A DNA stretch of 63,743 bases, counting the filler, from Dirinaria sp. TL-2023a (lineage: Eukaryota), in NCBI GenBank assembly GCA_051941275.1. It is 5 parts of 5 records of this genome, joined end to end, with 100 filler letters (N's around TTAATTAATTAA, not from the genome) between each part and the next. Parts side by side here need not be neighbours in the genome. Positions count along the whole stretch, not along the records: positions 12,801 to 25,497 come from JAVEBF010000747.1; 4 more parts are not named here. The stretch is one strand, 5' to 3'. A program made the position numbers and the translations under genes. The first letter of the stretch is position 1, and every line of letters starts with the position of its first letter. Shown piece after piece: positions 1 through 47,893 of this stretch. The notes beneath the pieces are model-generated. The model searched no databases. It saw only the letters and a program-made list of their open reading frames with translations, and was not told the DNA's origin.

Positions 1-603
1 CCATCCATAGGTCGCTTGTTTTTGAAGGTGGTTTTCCTGCTCGACCAACCCCATCCCGCCACACATCGTGATCAAACTGTGCATCTGGCAGCACCCGAAG
101 CACCCGATCTCGTATGCATGCACTGCGCCCAACCAGGAACGCGCGGATGCTGCCCCCTCGCTTCGTCGGTAAGTGGCTGTTAAGCGTCCAGTCGTCAAGG
201 TAAGTTTAGCAGGTGAGGTCAGCTAAGGTAACCTACTAAGGTAGATGTCGAAAAAACATACCTTGCGGTACCTATGTCCGGGCCTCAAACGCTCCCCGGT
301 CGCTTTCTTACCTCCACACTGACTCGCACCAGGGCTTCCACCGTTAGACTTCGGTTTACCCATTCTTACGTCCCGTGACCCCCACTTCCTTACCACATAC
401 GCTCATGTTGGCTCGGACCTCTTGTTTGCTGACTACCTTAGGACCATGTTCAAGAATAATCGGCCTTACCTCAATCGATCTAAAAAGCACGGCGTTCAAT
501 ATTATGGCTGTCGTTGTCTTTCCTTTAAAAACTCTCTCCTTTCCATCCGCTTTCCTTCCTCTTCCTCTTCCCTTTACCCTCCTCAGTTACAACCTGGAGA
601 ACC

Positions 604-12700: not shown

Positions 12701-12800
12701 NNNNNNNNNNNNNNNNNNNNNNNNNNNNNNNNNNNNNNNNNNNNTTAATTAATTAANNNNNNNNNNNNNNNNNNNNNNNNNNNNNNNNNNNNNNNNNNNN
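12701..12800. other. Artificial contig linker
   Basis: N44-TTAATTAATTAA-N44; the spacer gives stops in all six frames. Confidence 0.98.
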
Positions 12801-13547
12801 AGTGCCGTTGACCTCGTAGCCGTAGATGCTGTCTGTGAAGAATAGGTCCCCGGTGCTGGAGTCGAAGGTGAGGTCGTTGGGCGAGTTGAGGGCGGTTCCG
12901 TAGTAGTTGTTTACGACTGTGTTCACTTCTCCCGAGAGTGGGTCTACGGAGTAGATCCCCGGCGCGAGACCATTGATCGTGGTGCCGTTTAGGAATAGGG
13001 ATTTGCTGCCGCTTGCGGCCCAGTATATCAGTCCGTCGTGGAGGACACCGCCGTTGACTTCCTGCACGACTGTTTGCGGCGTATACGGCGAGAGGAGGGG
13101 GGGAGTGGTATTGAGGTTGAGTTGCAGTTGCGAAACAACGCCGTACCCGAATTCGGAGAATATGATGCGGTTTTGCGAGGGTATATAGACTGGGGCTTCA
13201 TGTACGTTGGGGCTTAGGGGGAAGAGTTGCTTGTTGGAAGGATTGGGTCCTAAGAGCGATAGTCCTAGGGTCTGGTTGAAGACGAGGAAAGATGCATTCT
13301 TCGCGTTACTGAAGCTTGGGTCTGAGGGCACAGAGGTGTCTTGGAAGGAATCGGAAAAGTCTATGTCGCCGTCACGGGAGGTCTGGCGGTTGAAAGGCGG
13401 TGGGAGGACAGCGGCGTGGCGGGTTATGCACACCACAGAGGTAGAGTTGGGATGGCAGTAGGTTGTTAATTCGGTCAGAGAGCCGGATTGAGCGCCGATC
13501 AGAAAGAACAAGGCGGAGAAATAATAGAAAAGGCTAGGGCGATACAT
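12801..13547 (-). CDS. Secreted SMP-30/gluconolactonase (beta-propeller) family protein, 3' truncated by contig end
   Basis: Signal-peptide-like MYRPSLFYYFSALFFLIGAQS. HEAPVY and NNYYGTALNSPNDL...FFTD motifs. Confidence 0.82.
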
Positions 13548-14387
13548 CGTCGTGGGAAGGAGGTTGGTGCGCTCTGATTGAACTTGTGAATGAAATTTGA
13601 TATAAGATAATATAAAAGATAGACAAGATACTATCAAAAGCCCGGACTCTAGGTTCTCAACAATGATCCTTGCCCAAGGAATCTGTTTGTGTCTCGGATG
13701 TGTACGGAGACATAAGAATGTTTCTTTTTGTAAAGCTTCTCATGCGTTTGTGAAAAGTCGAACCCTACTTCTAGCGGGTATAAATCTTGATATAGTGTGC
13801 ATGACGATCTGAAATCGAATCGTTCACTAGTATGTTTTCTATAATCAACTGATCCCTTAGCTTTGCAAGAGTCAATTAAAGTGTAGGGTCGTAGTAGTAT
13901 TGGTATGTCATGATCGATCAGACATTTACCTCAATATTAGACTAAGCGCTAGGAAAGTTAGGTACATTTAGCGCTCGGTCTCCACATATCCGTTAAAGAG
14001 TACAGTAAAAAGACATTGGATCAAAATAATCGAGACAATAGAGATTAAAGCTGAATTTTGGACTCAACTTCTGAGAAATCGGAAGATCTGCACTTAACCG
14101 TTGATGTTCAAGTCCTGGGTTACAGCGTGATTAAATGAGACTGATTCGCTTACCAACACCCGTCATGTACACGCCATTTGTGCTGCAGAATTACGACAAA
14201 TACTCAGCCCCGCACATGCCGCCAGTTCCGAATGTGCTCGAGAGGCTGCCGACCACGGAGAAGTATGGGAAGCATTGTGTAGACTTTGCAGTAAGGCGTG
14301 TCTCGTCACCCAGAATCAGATGACACCTGAACCACAGGGCGTATATACGGAGAGACGCTGGAATTACAGGCCTATGTCCATATCACT

Positions 14388-15236
14388 TTACAGATCTGAG
14401 CTTTTAATAACGGTGGCAGAGACGTCGCCCAGCTCCGCCAACACGGTCTGATGTATGATATTTTAGTTCCAGGGAGGCTTGTAAAGTAGATAAAGGAGGG
14501 TACCTGAACGTACATCTACCAATTGCTCAGCCGAAGCTCCCGGAATATCACGGTCCCCGATGGCATCGCTTATCACAGAGACATCGTAGCCAAGCTCGGC
14601 TGCTGCTCGTGACGTACCGGACACGCAGACATGAGCCTTTAAAGGAGGATCAGCCTAGTTGACTTCGAGGGCGTAGATCAGCACCCACCATATAACCTAA
14701 TGGAATGAATCAGCGACTTTATATCTAATTTAATGTATCTAAATTAATATCATACCTGCGAGAACAACCTTCTTCTTGCCGGTCTTGTCAATCTGCTCCT
14801 TGAGATCGGTCTGGGTAAAGGAGCTCGGGTGAGATTTGTGTATGACCTGGTTACACAGATTCAAAATAATGTCAGACTTCTCACTTCTGCATCATGCACC
14901 AGGGCCTAGCGAGGAAAAACGCACAATCTCCCCTTCGCGGGGCTCCAGCTCGGAGAACTCCTCAGCGAGATCTGTTCCAGGTGTAAAGAGAGGCGCCCCT
15001 TCCGGCGTGCTGTGCGTCACATGCACAACATCGCCCCCCGCGTCGCGATACTTCTTCAGAACAGCTCCAATATTCGCGCGCGATTCTGCGACGTTTGAGA
15101 CCGCCAATAAGCCATGATCGTACTCATTTTGAGCATCAATGATGACGTAGACGCTATCCTGCGGGGTCGGATTCGATGGCGGGATACCGAGGAGAGAGCG
15201 AAAGCTTTTACCCCTTTGTCCGGCTTCTTCGGCCAT
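14388..15236 (-). CDS. Isochorismatase-family cysteine hydrolase (multi-exon)
   Basis: [11 protein letters not shown]...[14 protein letters not shown]. Later exons give [37 protein letters not shown], and TVLAELGD...SSDL* ending at 14388. Confidence 0.85.
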
Positions 15237-16397
15237 GATGTATACTCCCTGATGAAATGAGTTAAGGTGATTTAGGGGTTTCGCCAACAGTCTTTGCAGG
15301 CCACATAAGTCGCCACTGAGGAGTAACGTCAAGACGAGATCCGTGTATCCGGAGGCCATTGATTGGCTGCGAAAGAGGCGAGCACCGCGCGGCTGATGCG
15401 GCTACTTTTCATTTCGCTGTGTCCTGACATTTCCGATGATAGCAATCGTAGTAGAGACAGGCACTTCCGACTGCAGGAGGGTAGCTTGCATAATCCCGTA
15501 GATGGCGTGAACCACGTCACTCACTCTCTTTGATCTGCTAGGTCCTTGAACAGCATCGTCTTCCTGCCATACACCATCCGTATGTAGGGCCTAAATGTAA
15601 CAACTTGAACTCCATCAAATAGCCTGACTCCGATGGGAGAAAGTTGAACAACAACAGCTATTACATGGAGTTTGCCAAATCGCAGGAGCCCTTCACCACG
15701 TACTTTTACCGTATGGCCGGCTAGCCGGTCCGAGTTCCGGCAGCCCTGGAAGTGCCCTGACTTCGGATATCTCGGGATGGATCGCAGCGACTGCAAGGTA
15801 AGATCCGCTCACGGCTTTGCGTATCTTTACACCTTACCAAATCTAGTAAAGACCCAGCTCGTATATCAAACTTATCAAACGATTGATGTACCGTCGATGT
15901 GGCCCGCTGAGAAGCTAGTATAGCGAATGACTCTTCGTGTTGCCCGAAGGGTATCTCGAAGTACACGAGAATGATCGCTGAAAGTCTCCTACGATCATGC
16001 CTCTTCAGCCGAGCGAAAATGGTCGACGCTGCGTATAGCGTAATGCTGCTAGAGAAAATTCCAAAATGATTCGTTCTTGGTTGTGGGTGTAATATTGACT
16101 ATACCAAGTTGAGTGTAGGAGATTCACAAAAATGTCTTTGAAGTCAAGCATAAGCGTCTATGTGGAAACCGGAGTCGCATGTACAGTTGCGCTTTACTGA
16201 GTAGACTAATATAGTGTGGCAAAAGTTACACAAGGAACCGGAAGATGTGAGTAAGTGCTTACTTCCGCTGCAGTCAGCAGCCGCCTTGCTCAGCCCTGTA
16301 TACTGTAGGCATTGTGAGTCAGACTCAGCAGAGCATCATAAAAACCTCGATATGGTTCAGAAAACAGAGCTATCGCACGAAGTCAGGCCTGGACAAG

Positions 16398-17222
16398 ATG
16401 GCCGAGAATATGAGGATTGTGGCTTTAGAGGATGGGAAAGTCCAGCTTCGAACTTCGCGTCTTATTCTGCGCCCAGCATACACAAGCGACCTTGCCGACC
16501 TTCATGGCATGATGAGCAATGACGATGTAATGCAGTACTGGTATGGAATATATCCGTCCTTCGTCTCTGTTTCTCTTCTTTAAACCAAAATCTTTTGTGT
16601 TATAAATTGAGGAGTCTCAGTCGTATTTACAGCCTGCAGGTCCTGTGCACCACACACAACGATTTCTCAAACTCACAAATATCTCACCGAGATGATTGAT
16701 TCCCCCTGCAACGGAGTCCTCGATTTCATGCTCACGCTGCGCTCCGACCCCAAGATTTGCATTGGCGGCATAGGCATTTTCTCGCCGACAAAGGCGGAGG
16801 TGGGGTATTTGCTGGGACGTGAGCTTTGGCGGAGGGGATACATGCTAGAAGCGATGAGCGCGTGGCTAGACTATGTTTGGAGTAATGACTGTATCTCCCT
16901 CATGGATCAGGTGCGTCGCAATAAGCTTGCCGAAATGAGAGAGAAGGAAGAGGAGGAGGGAGAAGAGGAAGAGGAGATTGCGGTGGAGGAGGACCGGCCG
17001 AGGAAGAGCAAGGACGCCAATTTTACGTTTGTGGGAACTGGGTACGAGAACTTTAGGGTGGAGAAAGTAATGGCGGATGTGGATCCGAGGAATGAAGCCT
17101 CGCTAGCACTACTGAGGAAGGTGGGTTTCATAGATGTTGGAAGGAGGGAGAAGACGTTCGAGACCCATTTGGGTTGGTGCGATACTATTGATTTGGAGTT
17201 GGCACGGTCGATAGTGGATTGA
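16398..17222 (+). CDS. GNAT (RimJ/RimL-like) acetyltransferase, one intron ~16541-16639
   Basis: LRTSRLILRP, EVGYLLGRELWRRGYMLEA, ADVDPRNEASLALLRKVGF. Internal poly-Glu insertion. Confidence 0.85.
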
Positions 17223-17450
17223 GGTTTTCCGATAAAGTCCTGGTGTATTGAGCATGTGGTGCTTGTGCCGCTTGAGAGAGGATTTGAGCTTCTGGTTTCC
17301 CTGGTTAGCGAGGTGTCCTGGATTTATATGTAATATGTAAAGGATATATAGATGAGAAATGGGTGTAAGACTGCTAACGGCTTTGGCCTTTGGATAATCG
17401 AAAACGACGGAGGAAACCATATGGTATAAAGGTAGAGTAGAAGAAGAAAG

Positions 17451-18290
17451 AAAAAAAAAAAAAAAGTATCATCAGAAGCTCTAGAGGGTTTATGAAATGT
17501 TTTACTTACAGTTTGGGTTTGTTTTCCGATCTGTTTCCCGATTCGATTTTCGGTTCGTCTCCCGGTTCGGTTGGTCGTTGTACTTGTTCCCTTATCCCGT
17601 TGTTTCGCTTTGCACCGGGCGGATTCTCAGGTGTGGATCCATATCCAGGTTTCAACTCCGCCGGGGTCTACTCACAAGTCTGCGGTAGATGGTCGCGGGG
17701 AGAATTATACTCGGCGGAGCAGACATACCCTTCTCCCCCGCCCGCAGGCGAGGGCACTCGCATTCGTCCAGCACCATATCAGACAGGGAGCAACGTCCCG
17801 GCTCCGGAGGGGTTCCCGTATACCATGGGCGAGGCACAGTTCCCTGCCCCAGGGCCTGGGTCACCGGCCATCTATCTGATGTAGATGGAATCGCGGGTGG
17901 AATTATACTCCTGTGAGCAGACAACCCTTCTCCCCCTCCCGCAGGAGAGGGCACTCAATTGGGTCCGGTGTCCCCACACCGGCTGTCACCGGCCATCTAT
18001 TGACCCACGAACTTGCTTTCGGCCCCGATGCGTCGTATTCGCCTATTTGGCACCTTTGAAAGCCTATTGGTTGTTAGCGAAACTTTTTGGAAGAGGGTTT
18101 TGTACGCGTTTTGGCTTGGGGTTTTCGTAGCGAGGTTGAAGTGGTGATTTGGTTTGTTAGGTGGGTTGGGAGGTGGTTGGTGGATGTTTTGAATAAACTG
18201 AAAAGACTGTATGGCATTAGCGAGGTTCGAACACAGAGCTTCTGATAATTTTTCATAGCAGAATATTGCCAGTTGCGCCATGTTTTTGGG
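17451..18290 (-). ncRNA. Candidate RNA polymerase III structured ncRNA or tRNA-headed SINE-like element
   Basis: Minus-strand A-box TGGCGCAACTGG (18280-18269), B-box GTGTTCGAACCT (18234-18223), two tandem multi-stem domains (18000-17881, 17875-17685), a third hairpin (17664-17615) and a T15 run (17465-17451). Confidence 0.5.
17685..18000 (-). repeat. Tandem duplicated structured unit (191 and 120 nt), each closed by ATAGATGG...CCATCTAC
   Basis: Both copies share the blocks ATAGATGGCCGGTGAC, GAGTGCCCTC.CCTGCGGG.GGGGGAGAAGGGT, TGTCTGCTC....GAGTATAATTC and CCGCGA..CCATCTAC. Confidence 0.93.
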
Positions 18291-18860
18291 ATGTGGAAAT
18301 GAGGTTTTATTAGGAATATTTACGGTGGTTTGCGGAGGGATACAGACAAGTCCAAGGCTGGCGGGATGGGTGGATCGGCATATTATTTGTATGCAGCCAA
18401 TCCCAAATAGCAGCCGCTGCCTATTCTCTGAATAAGGTAGTTGCTGATGGCACTTTTGCTAGTTTCCCTATCATGTTAGAGTACGCAAGCCTGAGAAGGA
18501 CCAGGCTTATATTTCTTGTCAAGACCGGCATATTGGTGTTTAGCACTATAGACGTCTCTGAATATCCTTCAAAAGATAAGCTTATTAGTCCGATGACTGG
18601 TCATTGGAGATGATTTTCAGATACGAGTTATGAAATCTCATGGTGTGGATAAAGAGGATCAAATTCCATTTGTGAGATCCTGTATCAACTTCATAAAATC
18701 AAAGTAAAGTGAGAAGTAATTTCGAGTCAACCAACCTCTGAACTTCTACATGAAGCTTGCCATACGAAAAAATACTCGCAGCACCCTAGATGAACCTTCG
18801 AAGCGCTACCTCAAGCATTATATGCAAATCCTGGGCAGTGAGCTTCAGACCCGCCATGCT

Positions 18861-22731
<3,871 letters not shown>

Positions 22732-22754
22732 TCAGAATTTGGTGCGGTGAAATG

Positions 22755-22792
22755 TGACGCGGTGGTGAGAATTCGCGACCGAGGGGACGCGT
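22755..22792. promoter_or_regulatory. MCB-like (ACGCGT / CGCG) cell-cycle elements upstream of SMC5
   Basis: ACGCGT at 22787-22792 plus GACGCG (~22756) and TCGCGA (~22773), within 80 bp of the SMC5 ATG. Confidence 0.4.
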
Positions 22793-23853
22793 AGGATATG
22801 CGCCAAGCCTTGCCCAGACTTGCCAAGACGCTTTTAGATTTAGAGGCATTCTAGAACCAACCTCCAACTTCAACAGAGAGTACGGAGCCTCAACCCTACC
22901 GACGATGCGATGCATCGGACGATAGTTCATGGCATCCTAATCTAAGGTCTGAAGTAAAAGTACACTAACCCACCCAGAACACCAAGCTCAGCCTGGACAA
23001 AAGCGTGGATCTCTATCACTCAGCTCCCACTTTACTTCACTCCTCTCTACAGATAACGCCAAGATCCCGGTCTGCTATGATGGCCCAGAACTTACTCGTT
23101 TCTTTTACCGAAGGTGCGGGACTAATCAACCACCACATTCGAAATTTTGCAAGCTAAGTAATCCATTGTATACTTTCTCCTGATAGTCATGCCACAACCT
23201 CAGATGCTGAGCCTCAGACTCTCAATATCAAACTCGTAGAAATCATTTGGACCTTTTACCGGATCTGATATCCGTAGCTCAAATCCAAACTCACATATTC
23301 TCATAAGATCATGAATTCCTCCCAGCAAAACTCCTCAGCCCTGTATTGATCCATGTCTCCTCCCACACCATATGCCAGAAATCCTCTTCATCCAAGGACG
23401 GTCCCGTGCCTGGAAAAGGTCTGTAGGGATTAAAAAAGAAAAGCATCTGCAATCCCCCTCTACCACCTCATCGCACCGTTGAGTTCTGAGTCACCATTCC
23501 AATCATAACTCCACCCTATCCTAAGCCCCCCCCCTACATGAAAACCAGATGCACCAATAGTACGAGATAAATGCGTCGTGTCATAAACCATGTCCTTCAA
23601 AACTCGTCTGCCCCCATGTATGCCGCCGCCGCCTCGACAGACGCTTCCTGTCCAGCAGCAGCCCAAAAGCAGTTAATTTCTGTCGCGAGATCCAGCAGCG
23701 GCGCTGGCGCACCATTCGCATATTTGTAGGCATTGTACCAGACGGCTGACACGCGGACGGATATGGATGGTAGTTTGAGTAATGGAATGATTCCTTGGCG
23801 GAAGATATCATGAGGATACGATGGTATGATGGTGGTGCGCCAACTCGGCAGGG

Positions 23854-25363
23854 TTATAAGATTAAAATTTGGGATTGATACTGATAGAATCGGTTGAACG
23901 AGGTAGGCCGTAGGGTAATCTCCGTGTTCTGATTCTCAAATCTCTTCACCGCGCGATTTTGTCTGCGAATGTTAATTAGATCCTCGCTTGTGATGGTGCG
24001 AAGTGCGGCTTTCTGTTTTAGCTGCGCAGATAATTTTTCGTACAGAAGTCTACCATGCTCGCTCAACATGTCCATTCTCACTAAGTTGACGTCGGCACCG
24101 TGCTTGAAAAGCAGTTTCAAGGTCTCATCAAACTCCGAATCCCATTCGATATTTAAAGAAAAGCCGTATTGGTTTAAGACTCTTTCAAGAGCTGACTCAT
24201 CGTAGTCTGATCGAACATTCGGATCCGCTCCATTGACTAATAAAACTTTCACAGAGGGAACATACAATTGACCACAGGCTGCTTCTAACGCCGTAACGCT
24301 CTCAGCATTAGCATCGGACGTGACTTGAGTTCGAACATTGATATTGACTCCGTATGCTAGAAAAATCTGTATCAAGTGCTCTCTGTCCTTGTGGGTTGCT
24401 GCAATCACTAGACCCTTAGCGCCGTCGGCACCATATTCTAGAAGCGCTGCAATCATAGAGGAGTGATTGTTATATATGACTGCAGTTCCGATCGCAGGCT
24501 GATAATCTCTTGCATAAAGACGAATGCCGCATGCATCTTCAGTATGAACGTCAGCTTTGTGGGCCAATAGTTCTCTGATCACGTTGACTTCGCGCCAGTG
24601 CAAAGCTTCCGCCAGCGGCGTTCTTTCAATGTTCAGTATGGAAAGCCTAGATTGATGAGGTATCTTCGCATTTACATCGACGCCGCAAGCGAGCAGATGA
24701 CTTGTTGTTTGCGGTAAGCGGAAGTGCAGCGCAAAAGACGATGATCCCCGCCAGACTCGGGATTCGTCTTTTGAATGCGCATCAAAATTAGCATACACGA
24801 CACACTCAGCACAATGACCTTGTAAGTTGAGCCATAGATGGTAAGTCGGACGGTCGGCCATGAAGAGCTGCAGAGCAATAGGACCACAAGCAGAACTCTT
24901 CTCTACTACATAGTATCTCTAAATGATTAGGCCATCTCGATGCCGCCAATTGTGCAAGTGGGTACTTTAGATGGTATCTGTCGATTGAATGCTCGATTTT
25001 GCCATCATCAGCTCCAATATCATGATCGAGACATAGGAGATATGCGAGGTATGCCTGGGCAATGAAAAGGTTGCTGGAGATCTTGTCCATGTACCAATTA
25101 CTCGTAGAGCTGCAGCAGATCCTTTCCGATAGTAGAAATTCCTGTACTGAGAAGTGCGCCAATCTGATAATTGAGCTTCCTTCGATCACGCCATCCGTAG
25201 CGGTCTCGACAGTAACCAGGGCAGAGCACATCAGCGGCACATCTTCCGGATCAATCAATCTCCTTTCTGCCGCCAATCGGGGTGAACTGTCTAAGTCGAT
25301 AGGTAAGATCTCGGCGGCTTGAGAAACACTTATAGGTCTATCAGTGAAAATCAATAATGTCAT
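23854..25363 (-). pseudogene. Frameshifted fragment of a NACHT-ankyrin NLR-like gene (winged helix + ankyrin repeats)
   Basis: ORF 25363-24806 has the post-NACHT winged helix (RPISVSQAAEIL..RLAHFSVQEFL..YPLAQLAASRW). Ankyrin repeats continue in another frame (24861-23854). No NACHT P-loop before the contig end. Confidence 0.65.
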
Positions 25364-25497
25364 GTAAGGCCATAATCATTGTTCTGATGGCGAGATTATC
25401 TGATGCTGATATAATCGAACATCGACAAGGATGAAGAAGGCGCTACAGTGACGATCCACTATGTTGTATTTTAGGTAGTATCGAGGAGAAGTCTTAA

Positions 25498-45652: not shown

Positions 45653-46432
45653 TGAAGCCTGCCACTCCAAGCGACTCCTCTCTCACAATCTTTCCAACAC
45701 CCTCAACCTACTTTAACGGTTTGCCTATTTGATGATGGCACGTTCGTGGTGAATCAGTCCATCGTCATCTCGTGAAATCATCGTTGCGTGAAACTGGCAC
45801 TCTGTCAGAGCACGAGAGATCGATAGACTTAAGCCCGAGGCATCAAAGAGATCGGATGCATTATCACGCTATAATGAGTAGTAGTTAGTGGGGAAGGGTG
45901 GTGGGCCAGTAGAGTAGGGTGGTGTGGCGGCAGTGAGATCCTTGATTTAACATGTGATAGCAGATATGTTGTTGGAACTGATTGACTGTGCAATTAATAT
46001 CTATCAATGTGGGCTGCTTCTCTACAGTTGCAATAGTACTGAGATAGGTACTGAAGCGTCAACACATGCAACAATTCCTTCATTGTAACATTCCCAACGA
46101 TGCTGTCTCGCTAAAGAAGCCTTAGCGTGTGCGCTAGTGTGGCACTAAGGGCTCGGGCGCGCCCGCTTGATACAAAGCGAGCACTACCTTAGTAACACGC
46201 ACACAACCTTCTTTCCTTTCCTCTGCAACAAGACCATATGTGAAATCGACACCTGCACACTACTTACTGTGGTCTTCTTTTTCTCTTGATCCCTGTCGCC
46301 GGGCGTTTTCTGGGGTCCCTTTGAGGTCCCAGTTACTCCGGATCCTGAGCTTTGTCTCAAGCGGTGTGGGTTTTTCAAATCCCATCGCGTTTCTCCACCG
46401 CGTCTTTGGCGGGTGGATTATAAAACCACAAT

Positions 46433-47893
46433 ATGTCTACTCACACAAACCCTACTCCCCCGCAGGGGAATTCCGTGGAGCTCGCAGTCCTGAAATACAA
46501 GCTGGAGCGGGAGACGAGAAGGGCTAATCGAGCCGAAGAAGGAGCCAAGCGATTCGAAGAGGACCTGCGAGCGCTCGAATCTGACCATGAGCGTTTGGTC
46601 TCTCAAGGTGCCCTATCGTCCGAGAGGATCACTGAGCTCGAAATCGAGCGAGACCAAGCCGTGGCCGAGAAAGAAAAGGCATTGGTCGAAAAAGAAAAGA
46701 CCATCGCTGACAAAGAGAGCGCAATCGCAGAGAAAGAAAGCGCGTTGGCCGAGAAAGAGAGCGCGTTGCCCTCACTGAGAAAGGAGAACGGCGAACCGAG
46801 AGCCAAGTTAACCCGGTTCCAAGAGACCTCTCTCACGATCGAGCGCCGTCTCAAGCAGAAGTCAGCAAGTGTTAGTCAAGCACTCGATCACATGAAGGCA
46901 CTAGTCGGCCATATGAATGCACTAGGCCCCCATTTTCTCACAATTCAGGACCAGGAACGGGACATCATATCACATTTGCACCGTATGCATGGTGCAGCTT
47001 CCGACCTCGACTGGGCGAACGATCAAGAGGGAAATACCAGCAGTCCGCCTAACAACCCAGAGACGAACTTACCTGCTGACGTAGACAGGGACAATGAGCA
47101 GGTCTTTGGCTCTGGGGGGCCTATGATGGATGATGATCATACCACGCCCGCTGCGTCACTTCCCCATATTCAAGACCTGAGTCTCTCGGCCAAGGACGGT
47201 AAACGTCCAGCAGCCGACCCTCCAGGGCCGAAGGGGGGGAATGTAAATAAGAAACAAAGGATGGAGCAGGGCTCGAAGAAATCAGAGGAATTAGCCAAGG
47301 AAAAGCCAACGTTCGCCGAGGCTCTGCAACAGAGACCTAAGAAGCCGACGCCCTTCTCAATACTTTCTGTGAAATTGACTCCAGAGGACATAGAACGGAG
47401 GAATAGAATAAGAGAATTCCTGCGAAAGCGAGAAGAAGGTCCTATATTCCCCGACGACGAAGAGACAGCTGACACGCAGCCGCAGCAACCAGAGAGCGAA
47501 CAGCAGGTCCAGAGCATTGTCGAACAGGAACCGATCACGGCGGCGCAGACCTCGAGCCAGCAAAGCCCCCGAGATCAGGGCTCTCACCCCACTGGTGGGT
47601 CAGAGCAGTAAGCTTGGAGTACGGTGGCAGCTCGAAAGCCCCAGAAGGAGGTCGAAAATGTTGATACGCCAAAGAACCCGAGGGTCTTGCGTGTCAAGCG
47701 TCCTTCTGAACAAGACAAGCCGGAGCAAAAAGCCACCACAGCACCAGCACAGCCTTCGACGCAGCAGGCGGAGGCTCCATCGGCCTCCCAAGCACCTTCG
47801 GAGAGTGAAGACACCATGGCAGGCCCGGGCGGCGGCCGGCGTGCTAAGATCCGAAAGAAGAACTCATCGACTAGGAGAGGGAGAGGGAGATGA
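46433..47893 (+). CDS. Orphan coiled-coil / disordered protein; in-frame TAA at 47609-47611 (stop codon or nonsense mutation)
   Basis: 392-aa ORF with heptad EKEKAL/EKESAL repeats. The same frame stays open after the TAA up to 47893. Confidence 0.6.
46666..46770 (+). repeat. Coding 21-bp minisatellite (5 heptads EKE[K/S]xxx)
   Basis: Five 21-bp units, each beginning GA(G/A/C)AAAGA and the last two nearly identical (GAGAAAGARAGCGCGTTG). Confidence 0.85.

Follow-up and report, generated by a model that had tools for sequence, protein, structure and literature searches.

Two tandem junction modules between convergent genes of the lichen-forming fungus Dirinaria sp. TL-2023a: a candidate structured RNA with a loop resembling loop A of the hairpin ribozyme

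Tandem glycine aptamers and the duplicated exonuclease-resistant RNAs (xrRNAs) and dumbbells of flavivirus 3' untranslated regions are paired homologous modules on one transcript, and genomic self-cleaving motifs are commonly found in tandem copies. To our knowledge, filamentous fungi have yielded very few descriptions of structured RNAs that are conserved but belong to no known class. Orphan structured RNAs of the Pezizomycotina, among them the conserved intergenic structures 1-4, were described by Gao, Jones and Rivas (2021, PMC8216456). Li and Breaker (2017, PMC5640933) reported variant hepatitis delta virus (HDV) ribozymes with an E-loop in P4 in 26 fungal species. Based on these two papers, orphan, lineage-restricted structured RNA candidates already have precedents in fungi. 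The hairpin ribozyme consists of helices 1-4 and loops A and B, with G+1, G8, C25 and A38 being invariant, A9 present in 940 of 941 examples, a purine at position 7 (R7) and free choice at N-1 and C+3; its loop B spans positions 20-26 and 36-44 and contains a sheared G21-A43 pair (PMC8216279). Here, an element is described on the minus strand of a 63,743-nucleotide (nt) stretch of DNA, called the window below, from the lichen-forming ascomycete Dirinaria sp. TL-2023a (GCA_051941275.1), in the part derived from JAVEBF010000747.1 (positions 12,801 to 25,497). The explanation which we tentatively prefer, at somewhat less than even confidence, is an unannotated, lineage-restricted structured non-coding RNA with two junction modules, probably serving as a protein-docking scaffold.

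The element resembles tandem aptamers and xrRNAs in having independently closed paralogous modules on a short linker, with conserved junctions and variable peripheral helices. It differs from them in showing no sequence or covariance-model similarity, and it resides in a fungal nuclear host with no associated gene or viral context. With the RNAs of PMC8216456, it shares being a stand-alone, intergenic, conserved and folded candidate of unknown function in ascomycetes. Those RNAs, however, are single hairpins with H-box-like features that occur across many genera and show significant covariation, whereas the element is built of tandem junction modules and has so far been seen in a single fungus and a pair of its close relatives. 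The main text of that paper contains none of the terms 'tandem', 'four-way', 'SMC5' and 'acetyltransferase'. The fungal HDV variants (PMC5640933) are, like the element, rich in guanine and cytosine (GC), about 100 nt long and intergenic in Pezizomycotina, with purine-rich non-canonical loops. In contrast to these variants, no nested double pseudoknot threads identically through both copies of the element when sought with a crude descriptor, and no Rfam model of the HDV type matches it.

An earlier note on this DNA had described two tandem copies of a multi-stem RNA domain, and as a sequence feature this observation is confirmed. Modules A and B are tandem paralogues on the minus strand, each closed, as proposed there, by UAGAUGG/CCAUCUA. 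Their 5' blocks are identical over 15 of 15 nt, and their 3' blocks share 85.7% identity over 77 nt (blastn, E 3e-19). Between these shared blocks lie arms of 28 nt (A) and 100 nt (B) which are unrelated in sequence, in agreement with the claim of one freely variable arm. In both copies, the order along the strand is UAGAUGG-CCGGUGAC, arm, GAGUG, P3, AGAAG, GGGU(A)UGUC, P5, UAAUUC-NN-CCCGCGA and CCAUCUA, and the segments described as unpaired (GGUGAC, GAGUG, AGAAG, UGUCU, GUAUAAUUC and CGCGA) are indeed identical. The features are listed below, where P1, P3 and P5 are helices, R1 is a covariance model built from modules A and B themselves, and X1 and X2 are the two close relatives.

17999-17882, minus strand: module A, 118 nt, closed by P1; 147 bits with R1
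17874-17686, minus strand: module B, 189 nt, closed by P1; 239 bits with R1
17881-17875, minus strand: spacer CAUCAGA, 7 nt; length not conserved, about 4 nt left in X1 and X2
17993-17999, minus strand: A, 5' strand of P1, UAGAUGG, pairing with CCAUCUA at 17882-17888; the outermost U-A pair is missing in X2, leaving 6 conserved base pairs (bp)
17985-17992, minus strand: A, invariant junction strand CCGGUGAC, the CCGG of which may pair with CCGCG at 17892-17896 and so lengthen P1
17957-17984, minus strand: A, 28-nt variable arm, in which a 7-bp hairpin (CCGGUGU-GGGG-ACACCGG) precedes ACCCAAUU
17952-17956, minus strand: A, GAGUG, invariant, forming the 5' strand of the purine-rich loop beside P3
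17932-17951, minus strand: A, P3 hairpin CCCUCUCC-UGCG-GGAGGGGG, 8 bp capped by UGCG; one pair, G-C in B, is U-A here
17927-17931, minus strand: A, AGAAG, invariant, forming the 3' strand of the purine-rich loop
17906-17919, minus strand: A, P5 hairpin UGCUC-ACAG-GAGUA, 5 bp with one G.U
17889-17905, minus strand: A, 3' junction strand UAAUUCCACCCGCGAUU; a CA in it is UC in X2, as in B
17868-17874, minus strand: B, 5' strand of P1, UAGAUGG, pairing with 17686-17692; its first U is C in X1 and X2
17860-17867, minus strand: B, invariant junction strand CCGGUGAC
17760-17859, minus strand: B, variable arm of 100 nt, a long irregular hairpin of which the apical fold of about 50 nt is kept in the X2 variant
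17735-17759, minus strand: B, GAGUG, then P3 CCCUCGCC-UGCG-GGCGGGGG
17693-17734, minus strand: B, AGAAG, GGGUAUGUC, P5 UGCUC-CGCC-GAGUA, then UAAUUCUCCCCGCGA

On the minus strand, the sequence past module B is ACCGCAGAC.

Aligning the two copies with RNAalifold, as the earlier note had suggested, recovers P1 (7 bp), P3 (8 bp, UGCG loop) and P5 (5 bp) in both copies together with a weak 3-bp helix, at -32.05 kcal/mol on the minus strand and -24.95 kcal/mol on the plus strand. The three main helices make up 20 pairs, and all 40 of the 40 cells are paired, compared to 42-57% when the 3' partners are slid. One of the 20 pairs differs on both sides, being U-A in P3 of A and G-C in P3 of B, which is the compensatory change reported before. 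Likewise, the stem of the GCUC-NNNN-GAGU hairpin is kept while its loop differs (ACAG in A, CGCC in B). Two further features are specific to the minus strand, as was also claimed: the UGCG tetraloop reads CGCA on the plus strand, and P3 and P5 each contain one G.U pair in both copies, which would become A.C mismatches on the plus strand. In a post hoc simulation with eight random substitutions on the 90-nt core, all 20 pairs were kept in 2.8% of the trials, and kept together with a double change in 0.45%. Adopting the consensus fold instead of the minimum-energy one costs only 0.7 kcal/mol in A and 3.5 kcal/mol in B. The strand linking the arm and P3 can also pair with the GGGU.. segment in each copy; since the registers differ between A and B, this helix is not counted as established.

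Next, the element was compared to its relatives, whose contigs came from two of four DNA runs and were placed at 80% likeness. The other two DNA runs gave no contig over the region, and no RNA run was among those listed. X2 is a lichen metagenome run, in which a 400-nt contig (depth 9.4) covers 17735-18100 and three short contigs cover 17602-17764. X1 is a phyllosphere run with a 330-nt contig (depth 2.4) covering 17830-18100. Counting only differences more than about 30 nt from contig ends, X2 has 3 substitutions in 102 nt of module core against 20 in 234 nt of arm, spacer and flank (p 0.044), or 3 against 25 when indel events are included (p 0.011). For X1, the corresponding substitutions are 0 in 102 nt against 8 in 139 nt (p 0.011), or 0 against 12 with indel events (p 0.001). 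The module cores are thus changed by 0-3%, compared to 6-11% in the arm, spacer and flank, and they look to be under selective conservation. The spacer indels differ between X1 and X2. As conservation starts and stops at P1, each module probably forms a unit of its own and not a permuted unit running from cleavage site to cleavage site. Since both modules are present in X2, the duplication is older than that split.

The changes within stems also point to one strand. Three single-sided changes fit pairing on the minus strand only: in P3 of copy A, a G>A change at 17947 in X2 turns C-G into U.G (an A.C mismatch on the plus strand), and in arm B of X2, changes at 17815 and 17802 turn G.U into A-U. 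A fourth change, at 17964 and common to X1 and X2, would convert A-U into G.U in a candidate helix whose register is tentative. By coin toss, such a four out of four compatibility with the minus strand is estimated at about 6%. Elsewhere in X2, copy A reads UC at 17898-17899 where the window has CA, matching copy B at that place, which hints at gene conversion between the copies.

Arm B was examined separately. In X2, two clusters of changes at 17825-17829 and 17796-17799 (arm positions 31-33 and 61-64) face each other in one predicted stem and include a C>G and A>C exchange, next to deletions on both strands of the stem. When the arm is folded alone, the X2 variant keeps 28 of 31 pairs; comparable random mutation sets average 5.4 pairs, and 0.4% of them reach 28. 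On the plus strand, 0 of 32 pairs are kept. Only the apical fold of about 50 nt is unchanged under every treatment. The CAG-GGAA-CUG hairpin that had been proposed in this arm is present as a sequence and is not formed in the minimum-energy fold.

Starting from the observed architecture, conservation boundaries and minus-strand-compatible changes, the preferred structured RNA may be pictured as follows. The locus would be a non-coding RNA read from the minus strand, with presumed transcription and RNA ends, and each module would fold on its own into a multi-helix junction. P1 (6-7 bp) would close the module, followed by the hairpin of an arm that is free to vary. P3 (8 bp), capped by UGCG, would stand beside the invariant purine-rich loop GAGUG/AGAAG, and P5 (5 bp) would carry a free loop, with the invariant single strands CCGGUGAC and UAAUUC..CCCGCGA lying at the junction. 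Such a module would probably be a docking platform for a presumed protein partner or for a tertiary contact, its invariant, unpaired purine-rich strands offering the surface, in which case the RNA could act as a scaffold for two protein copies or a dimer.

Based on open reading frames (ORFs) and Pfam domains, both modules lie in a 1.6-kb gap between convergent genes, as a GNAT gene on the plus strand and an SMC gene on the minus strand end on either side:

ends at 17222, plus strand: GNAT acetyltransferase gene (ORF and Pfam)
last ORF ends at about 18861, minus strand: SMC5 gene (ORF, Pfam and protein matches)

A stretch of the SMC gene farther upstream matches, at 100% identity, a protein (P0001) from a metagenome-assembled genome (MAG) of a Dirinaria species, by its NCBI name, and the next-best matches are SMC5 proteins of other Lecanoromycetes at about 50% identity. 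The element itself is an island of 62% GC within an intergenic spacer of 37-47% GC, and open frames of 100 codons (minus strand) and 147 codons (plus strand) cross it. About 70 nt upstream of module A, a CCAAU motif (18070-18066, minus strand) lies within a C/A-rich stretch at 18000-18200, across which the plus-strand GC skew is +0.38 to +0.52; no TATA-like element was seen. Ten nt past module B, the minus strand reads GUGAGU, resembling a 5' splice site (17675-17670, identical in X2), and about 220 nt beyond it on the same strand lies a U19 run (17465-17447). A transcript of the minus strand could be processed or terminated at either GUGAGU or the U19 run. Together with CCAAU, they are the sole transcription signals on the minus strand, and they are weak. 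Within the GNAT ORF, a (GAGGAG)6 repeat (16941-16976) gives an acidic, Glu-rich insertion. Elsewhere in the window, paired 44-nt runs of N (12701-12744 and 12757-12800, with three more pairs about 12.75 kb apart; 352 N in total) look like masked stretches and not like a biological feature.

Several points weigh against a conserved structured RNA at this locus. Every structure test was devised after the sequence was seen. Between A and B, 19 of the 20 consensus pairs are invariant, and the shuffle control (230/500) is uninformative with two sequences. The fold z-scores are ordinary: A has -1.56 on the minus strand and -1.77 on the plus strand, B -0.41 and -0.79. When copy B is folded alone, P3 and P5 have a pairing probability of only 0.01-0.04, with 0.02-0.04 for P3, because a B-specific 7-bp GGCGGGG/CUCCGCC helix competes. 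Bases found only in B, namely the G and C of its P3 and the CGCC of its P5 loop (17708-17759), create this helix and also a GCGAG/CUCGC hairpin; copy A can form neither alternative. For arm B, 7.2% of the sets with random bases at the same positions keep at least 28 pairs. When the whole module B is folded, the X2 variant keeps only 25 of the 63 pairs, including 18 of the 31 that lie in the arm, a retention matched by 35% of the random sets. The arm evidence is therefore suggestive and not decisive, since retention depends on how the arm is folded. Regarding the relatives, X1 differences may be errors because of the depth of 2.4, and X1 and X2, being 5-10% diverged with several changes in common, are not independent. 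Besides the contig ends, the 3' core of B is left out of the counts; the X2 contigs over it carry 8, 1 and 1 differences, and the three that are listed all lie outside the module. Because the relatives do not keep the outermost U-A pair of P1, the conserved closing stem is AGAUGG/CCAUCU. No promoter, terminator or RNA end was identified for the locus. The interpretation in the earlier note is supported by the changes in stems that fit only minus-strand pairing; the thermodynamic support, judged by the z-scores on that strand and the improbable P3 of copy B on its own, is weaker than the note implied.

A possible alternative, somewhat less likely than the structured RNA, is that the locus has no RNA function and represents an old tandem duplication, whose cores were kept by gene conversion or for a reason at the DNA level, e.g., binding sites with CCGG, CGCG or CGG motifs. 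The 'compensatory' pair in P3 would then come from template switching in an inverted repeat, and quasi-palindrome correction is a known source of paired changes. The ordinary z-scores, the 19 invariant pairs and the loss of significance for the arm once the whole module is folded are in line with this alternative, as is the CA to UC change in copy A of X2, which makes it identical to B in the manner of gene conversion. However, gene conversion homogenises within a genome and leaves the low divergence of the cores between species unexplained. Changes to and from G.U preserve pairing in the RNA of one strand only and disrupt the palindrome in the DNA, and a promoter element is not expected between convergent 3' ends. 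The claim that this is no plain neutral duplication is supported by cores that are changed less than the arm, spacer and flank, with spacer indels that differ per relative. A structured RNA is still the reading to which we incline.

Known RNA classes were searched for next. Rfam 15 gave no match anywhere in the window at the gathering score. At E up to 10, with queries of 901, 127 and 194 nt on both strands, only noise from microRNA models and an 8-bit SNORD17 fragment were returned, and no known riboswitch class (thiamine pyrophosphate, glycine and others) matched by covariance model. The ribozyme or aptamer identity suggested for the module gains no support here, as no Rfam ribozyme or riboswitch model scores even at E 10.

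A cis-acting switch, in which tandem ligand- or protein-sensing domains control the processing of a host transcript with GUGAGU as the candidate target, is unlikely. In both copies, UGCUC can pair with either the upstream GAGUG or the downstream GAGUA, and GGGU.. with either the arm-P3 strand or CCC, each being exclusive of the other. GUGAGU at 17675-17670 is unchanged in X2, and homologous junction modules on a short linker are reminiscent of tandem aptamers. Nevertheless, such alternative pairings are frequent by chance in G/U-rich sequence and a 6-nt motif is weak. Downstream on the minus strand there is no gene or ORF to be controlled, only the tail of the GNAT gene on the opposite strand, and no riboswitch model matches.

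A self-cleaving ribozyme, distant from or convergent with the hairpin ribozyme, with P3 as helix 1 and AGUG/AGAA as loop A, would be a distinctly unlikely identity. The likeness that the earlier note had pointed out holds for loop A in sequence and strand order: in both copies, AGUG stands opposite AGAA beside the loop-closed helix P3 and fits the loop A rules (PMC8216279). The order of helix, N-G-U-N, helix 1 and R-G-A-A is as in loop A, and the setting is a multi-helix junction. In addition, GUAUAAUUC fits 7 of 9 positions of what we take to be the 3' strand of loop B, including the position of A38, and tandem copies are usual for self-cleaving motifs. The strand opposite GUAUAAUUC, however, is UGUCU, without G21, A22-A24 or a G-A-A-A run, and the AGAAACA-type 5' strand of loop B is absent from the element. 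The position matching A43, in a numbering which is partly our assumption, is a U here. Candidates for helix 2 are ACCC/GGGU (probability 0.39) or CAAUU/GGUUG (0.19) in A and AUGC/GUAU (0.48) in B, in different registers in the two copies, and helix 2 and the helix closing loop B need the same GGG and are mutually exclusive. There are further differences. No helix separates the purine loop from the junction, in or close to which it sits, whereas the ribozyme has one between the two; the conserved unit is bounded by P1 instead of being permuted from cleavage to cleavage; and the element occurs as a tandem pair on a chromosome rather than within a small circular RNA. No Rfam ribozyme model matched in the search described above; this includes the hairpin ribozyme model RF00173. 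The element is not a member of the hairpin ribozyme family and the likeness stops at loop A, although it may work through a similar purine loop.

An HDV descriptor was tried as well, because E-loop HDV variants are reported from fungi (PMC5640933). This loose descriptor found 0 folds with the same P1-3', P3 and L3 in both copies on either strand; being self-made and crude, it gives 0-124 chance matches per shuffled sequence. Fitting the HDV fold by eye did not succeed either. The HDV-type models of Rfam showed no match.

Other classes were rejected one by one. ARAGORN found 0 genes for transfer RNA (tRNA) in the window, and no Rfam tRNA model matched. For a C/D small nucleolar RNA (snoRNA), no box C (RUGAUGA, up to 1 mismatch) is present on either strand in 17660-18030, and the only CUGA sites lie within arm B on the minus strand or, on the plus strand, in the spacer, which is not conserved. 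For an H/ACA snoRNA, the hinge ACAUCA, made up of the last base of P1 and part of the spacer, fits ANANNA in the window only, as the hinges of about 4 nt in X1 and X2 do not fit, and there is no ACA box in the tail ACCGCAGAC after module B. For a telomerase RNA, taking TTAGGG as the assumed telomere repeat, both strands of 17223-18861 lack any 7- or 8-mer of (CCCTAA)n as well as an Sm site of the form A-U(4-6)-G; seven near-matches to CCCTAACCC are found in the window, none within 17223-18861. By eye, the GA/AGUA-GAA geometry required for a K-turn or loop E is absent, as are the long terminal repeats of a miniature inverted-repeat transposable element. With regard to dispersed repeats, the element has two adjacent copies in 63.7 kb, a 7-nt end repeat and X2 contigs that are collinear with the flanks.

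At the protein level, eight ORF translations were searched against Pfam, and the five in or beside the element had no match. The 100-codon (minus) and 147-codon (plus) ORFs have 0 homologues at E up to 1 among 5.8 billion clustered proteins. A 153-codon minus-strand ORF (17997-18458), for which the UAG of P1 is the stop codon, is interrupted by 1-nt deletions in X1 and X2 and was not accepted as a gene for this reason. The two differences in P3 between A and B fall on second codon positions in the one frame that the copies share. A divergent member of a known RNA class (snoRNA, tRNA-like RNA, telomerase RNA, ribonuclease P/MRP or signal recognition particle RNA) or a protein-coding exon is thus highly unlikely, as the loosely cloverleaf-like 7-bp closing stem with four helices, the hinge of the window reading ANANNA and the two frames of 100 and 147 codons are set against the lack of a tRNA, Rfam match, box C, ACA box, telomere template or Sm site, a hinge that is not conserved in X1 or X2, ORFs without Pfam domain of which the two longest have no protein homologue, and P3 differences falling at second codon positions.

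Further occurrences of the element were looked for in the window and in other collections. By blastn, no copy other than modules A and B was found in the 63.7-kb window. R1 likewise gave no significant third match; the best extra one, at 46409-46468 on the minus strand, scored 11.6 bits (E 0.34) and is not considered significant because chance matches reach 9.8 bits. It consists of a CCCC-UGCG-GGGG hairpin, then GGGAGUAGGGUUUGUGUG and then UAUAAUCCACCCGC, in the order of the module core, and is antisense to the start of a plus-strand ORF at 46424-47611. It may be a decayed third fragment. Outside the window, the core pattern AGAAGGG-N(1-3)-GTCTG-N(10-14)-GTATAATTC had a sole match among JGI metagenome contigs (L001) and a sole match in GTDB (L002, in a Saprospiraceae MAG), and 0 matches in viral contigs. 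Both are regarded as chance. The former lies in a bacterial coding sequence at 208-241 (minus strand) that is read as glyQ-like (glycyl-tRNA synthetase alpha subunit) and scores 9.8 bits with R1, and the latter scores 0.3 bits at the site, with 7.0 bits as the best of the locus. These blanks say little since the metagenome, viral and GTDB collections are not collections of fungal genomes.

In the literature, the sequence words of the element returned, among the matches listed, only two 10-mers in unrelated papers and no 11- or 15-mer. Its motifs do not occur in three short supplement files of PMC5640933, of which the alignments and figures might hold a related motif. Searches on fungal structured RNA motifs, hairpin ribozymes and lichen non-coding RNA gave no description matching the element. 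The element matches no described sequence family among Rfam and the literature searched, and this literature gave no conserved structured RNA of unknown class for lichen-forming fungi.

The evidence base consists of two paralogues and two close relatives; on this basis, the repeat is real and the modules look constrained, and the interpretation given in the earlier note is partly supported. If a wider search were to lack covariation, the locus would serve as a caution that one compensatory pair between two paralogues is insufficient to call a structure. It is very unlikely that the element represents a new catalytic or ligand-sensing class of RNA in a eukaryotic chromosome, with an active loop that shares ancestry with loop A of the hairpin ribozyme or has converged on it. 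If this were true, it would be the first DNA-encoded hairpin-like self-cleaving motif, or the second eukaryotic riboswitch-type aptamer, in lichen-forming fungi. As a conserved pair of junction modules with a loop like that of the hairpin ribozyme, the element would be a compact and testable candidate for a new ribonucleoprotein or RNA chemistry in a lineage that has been little studied.

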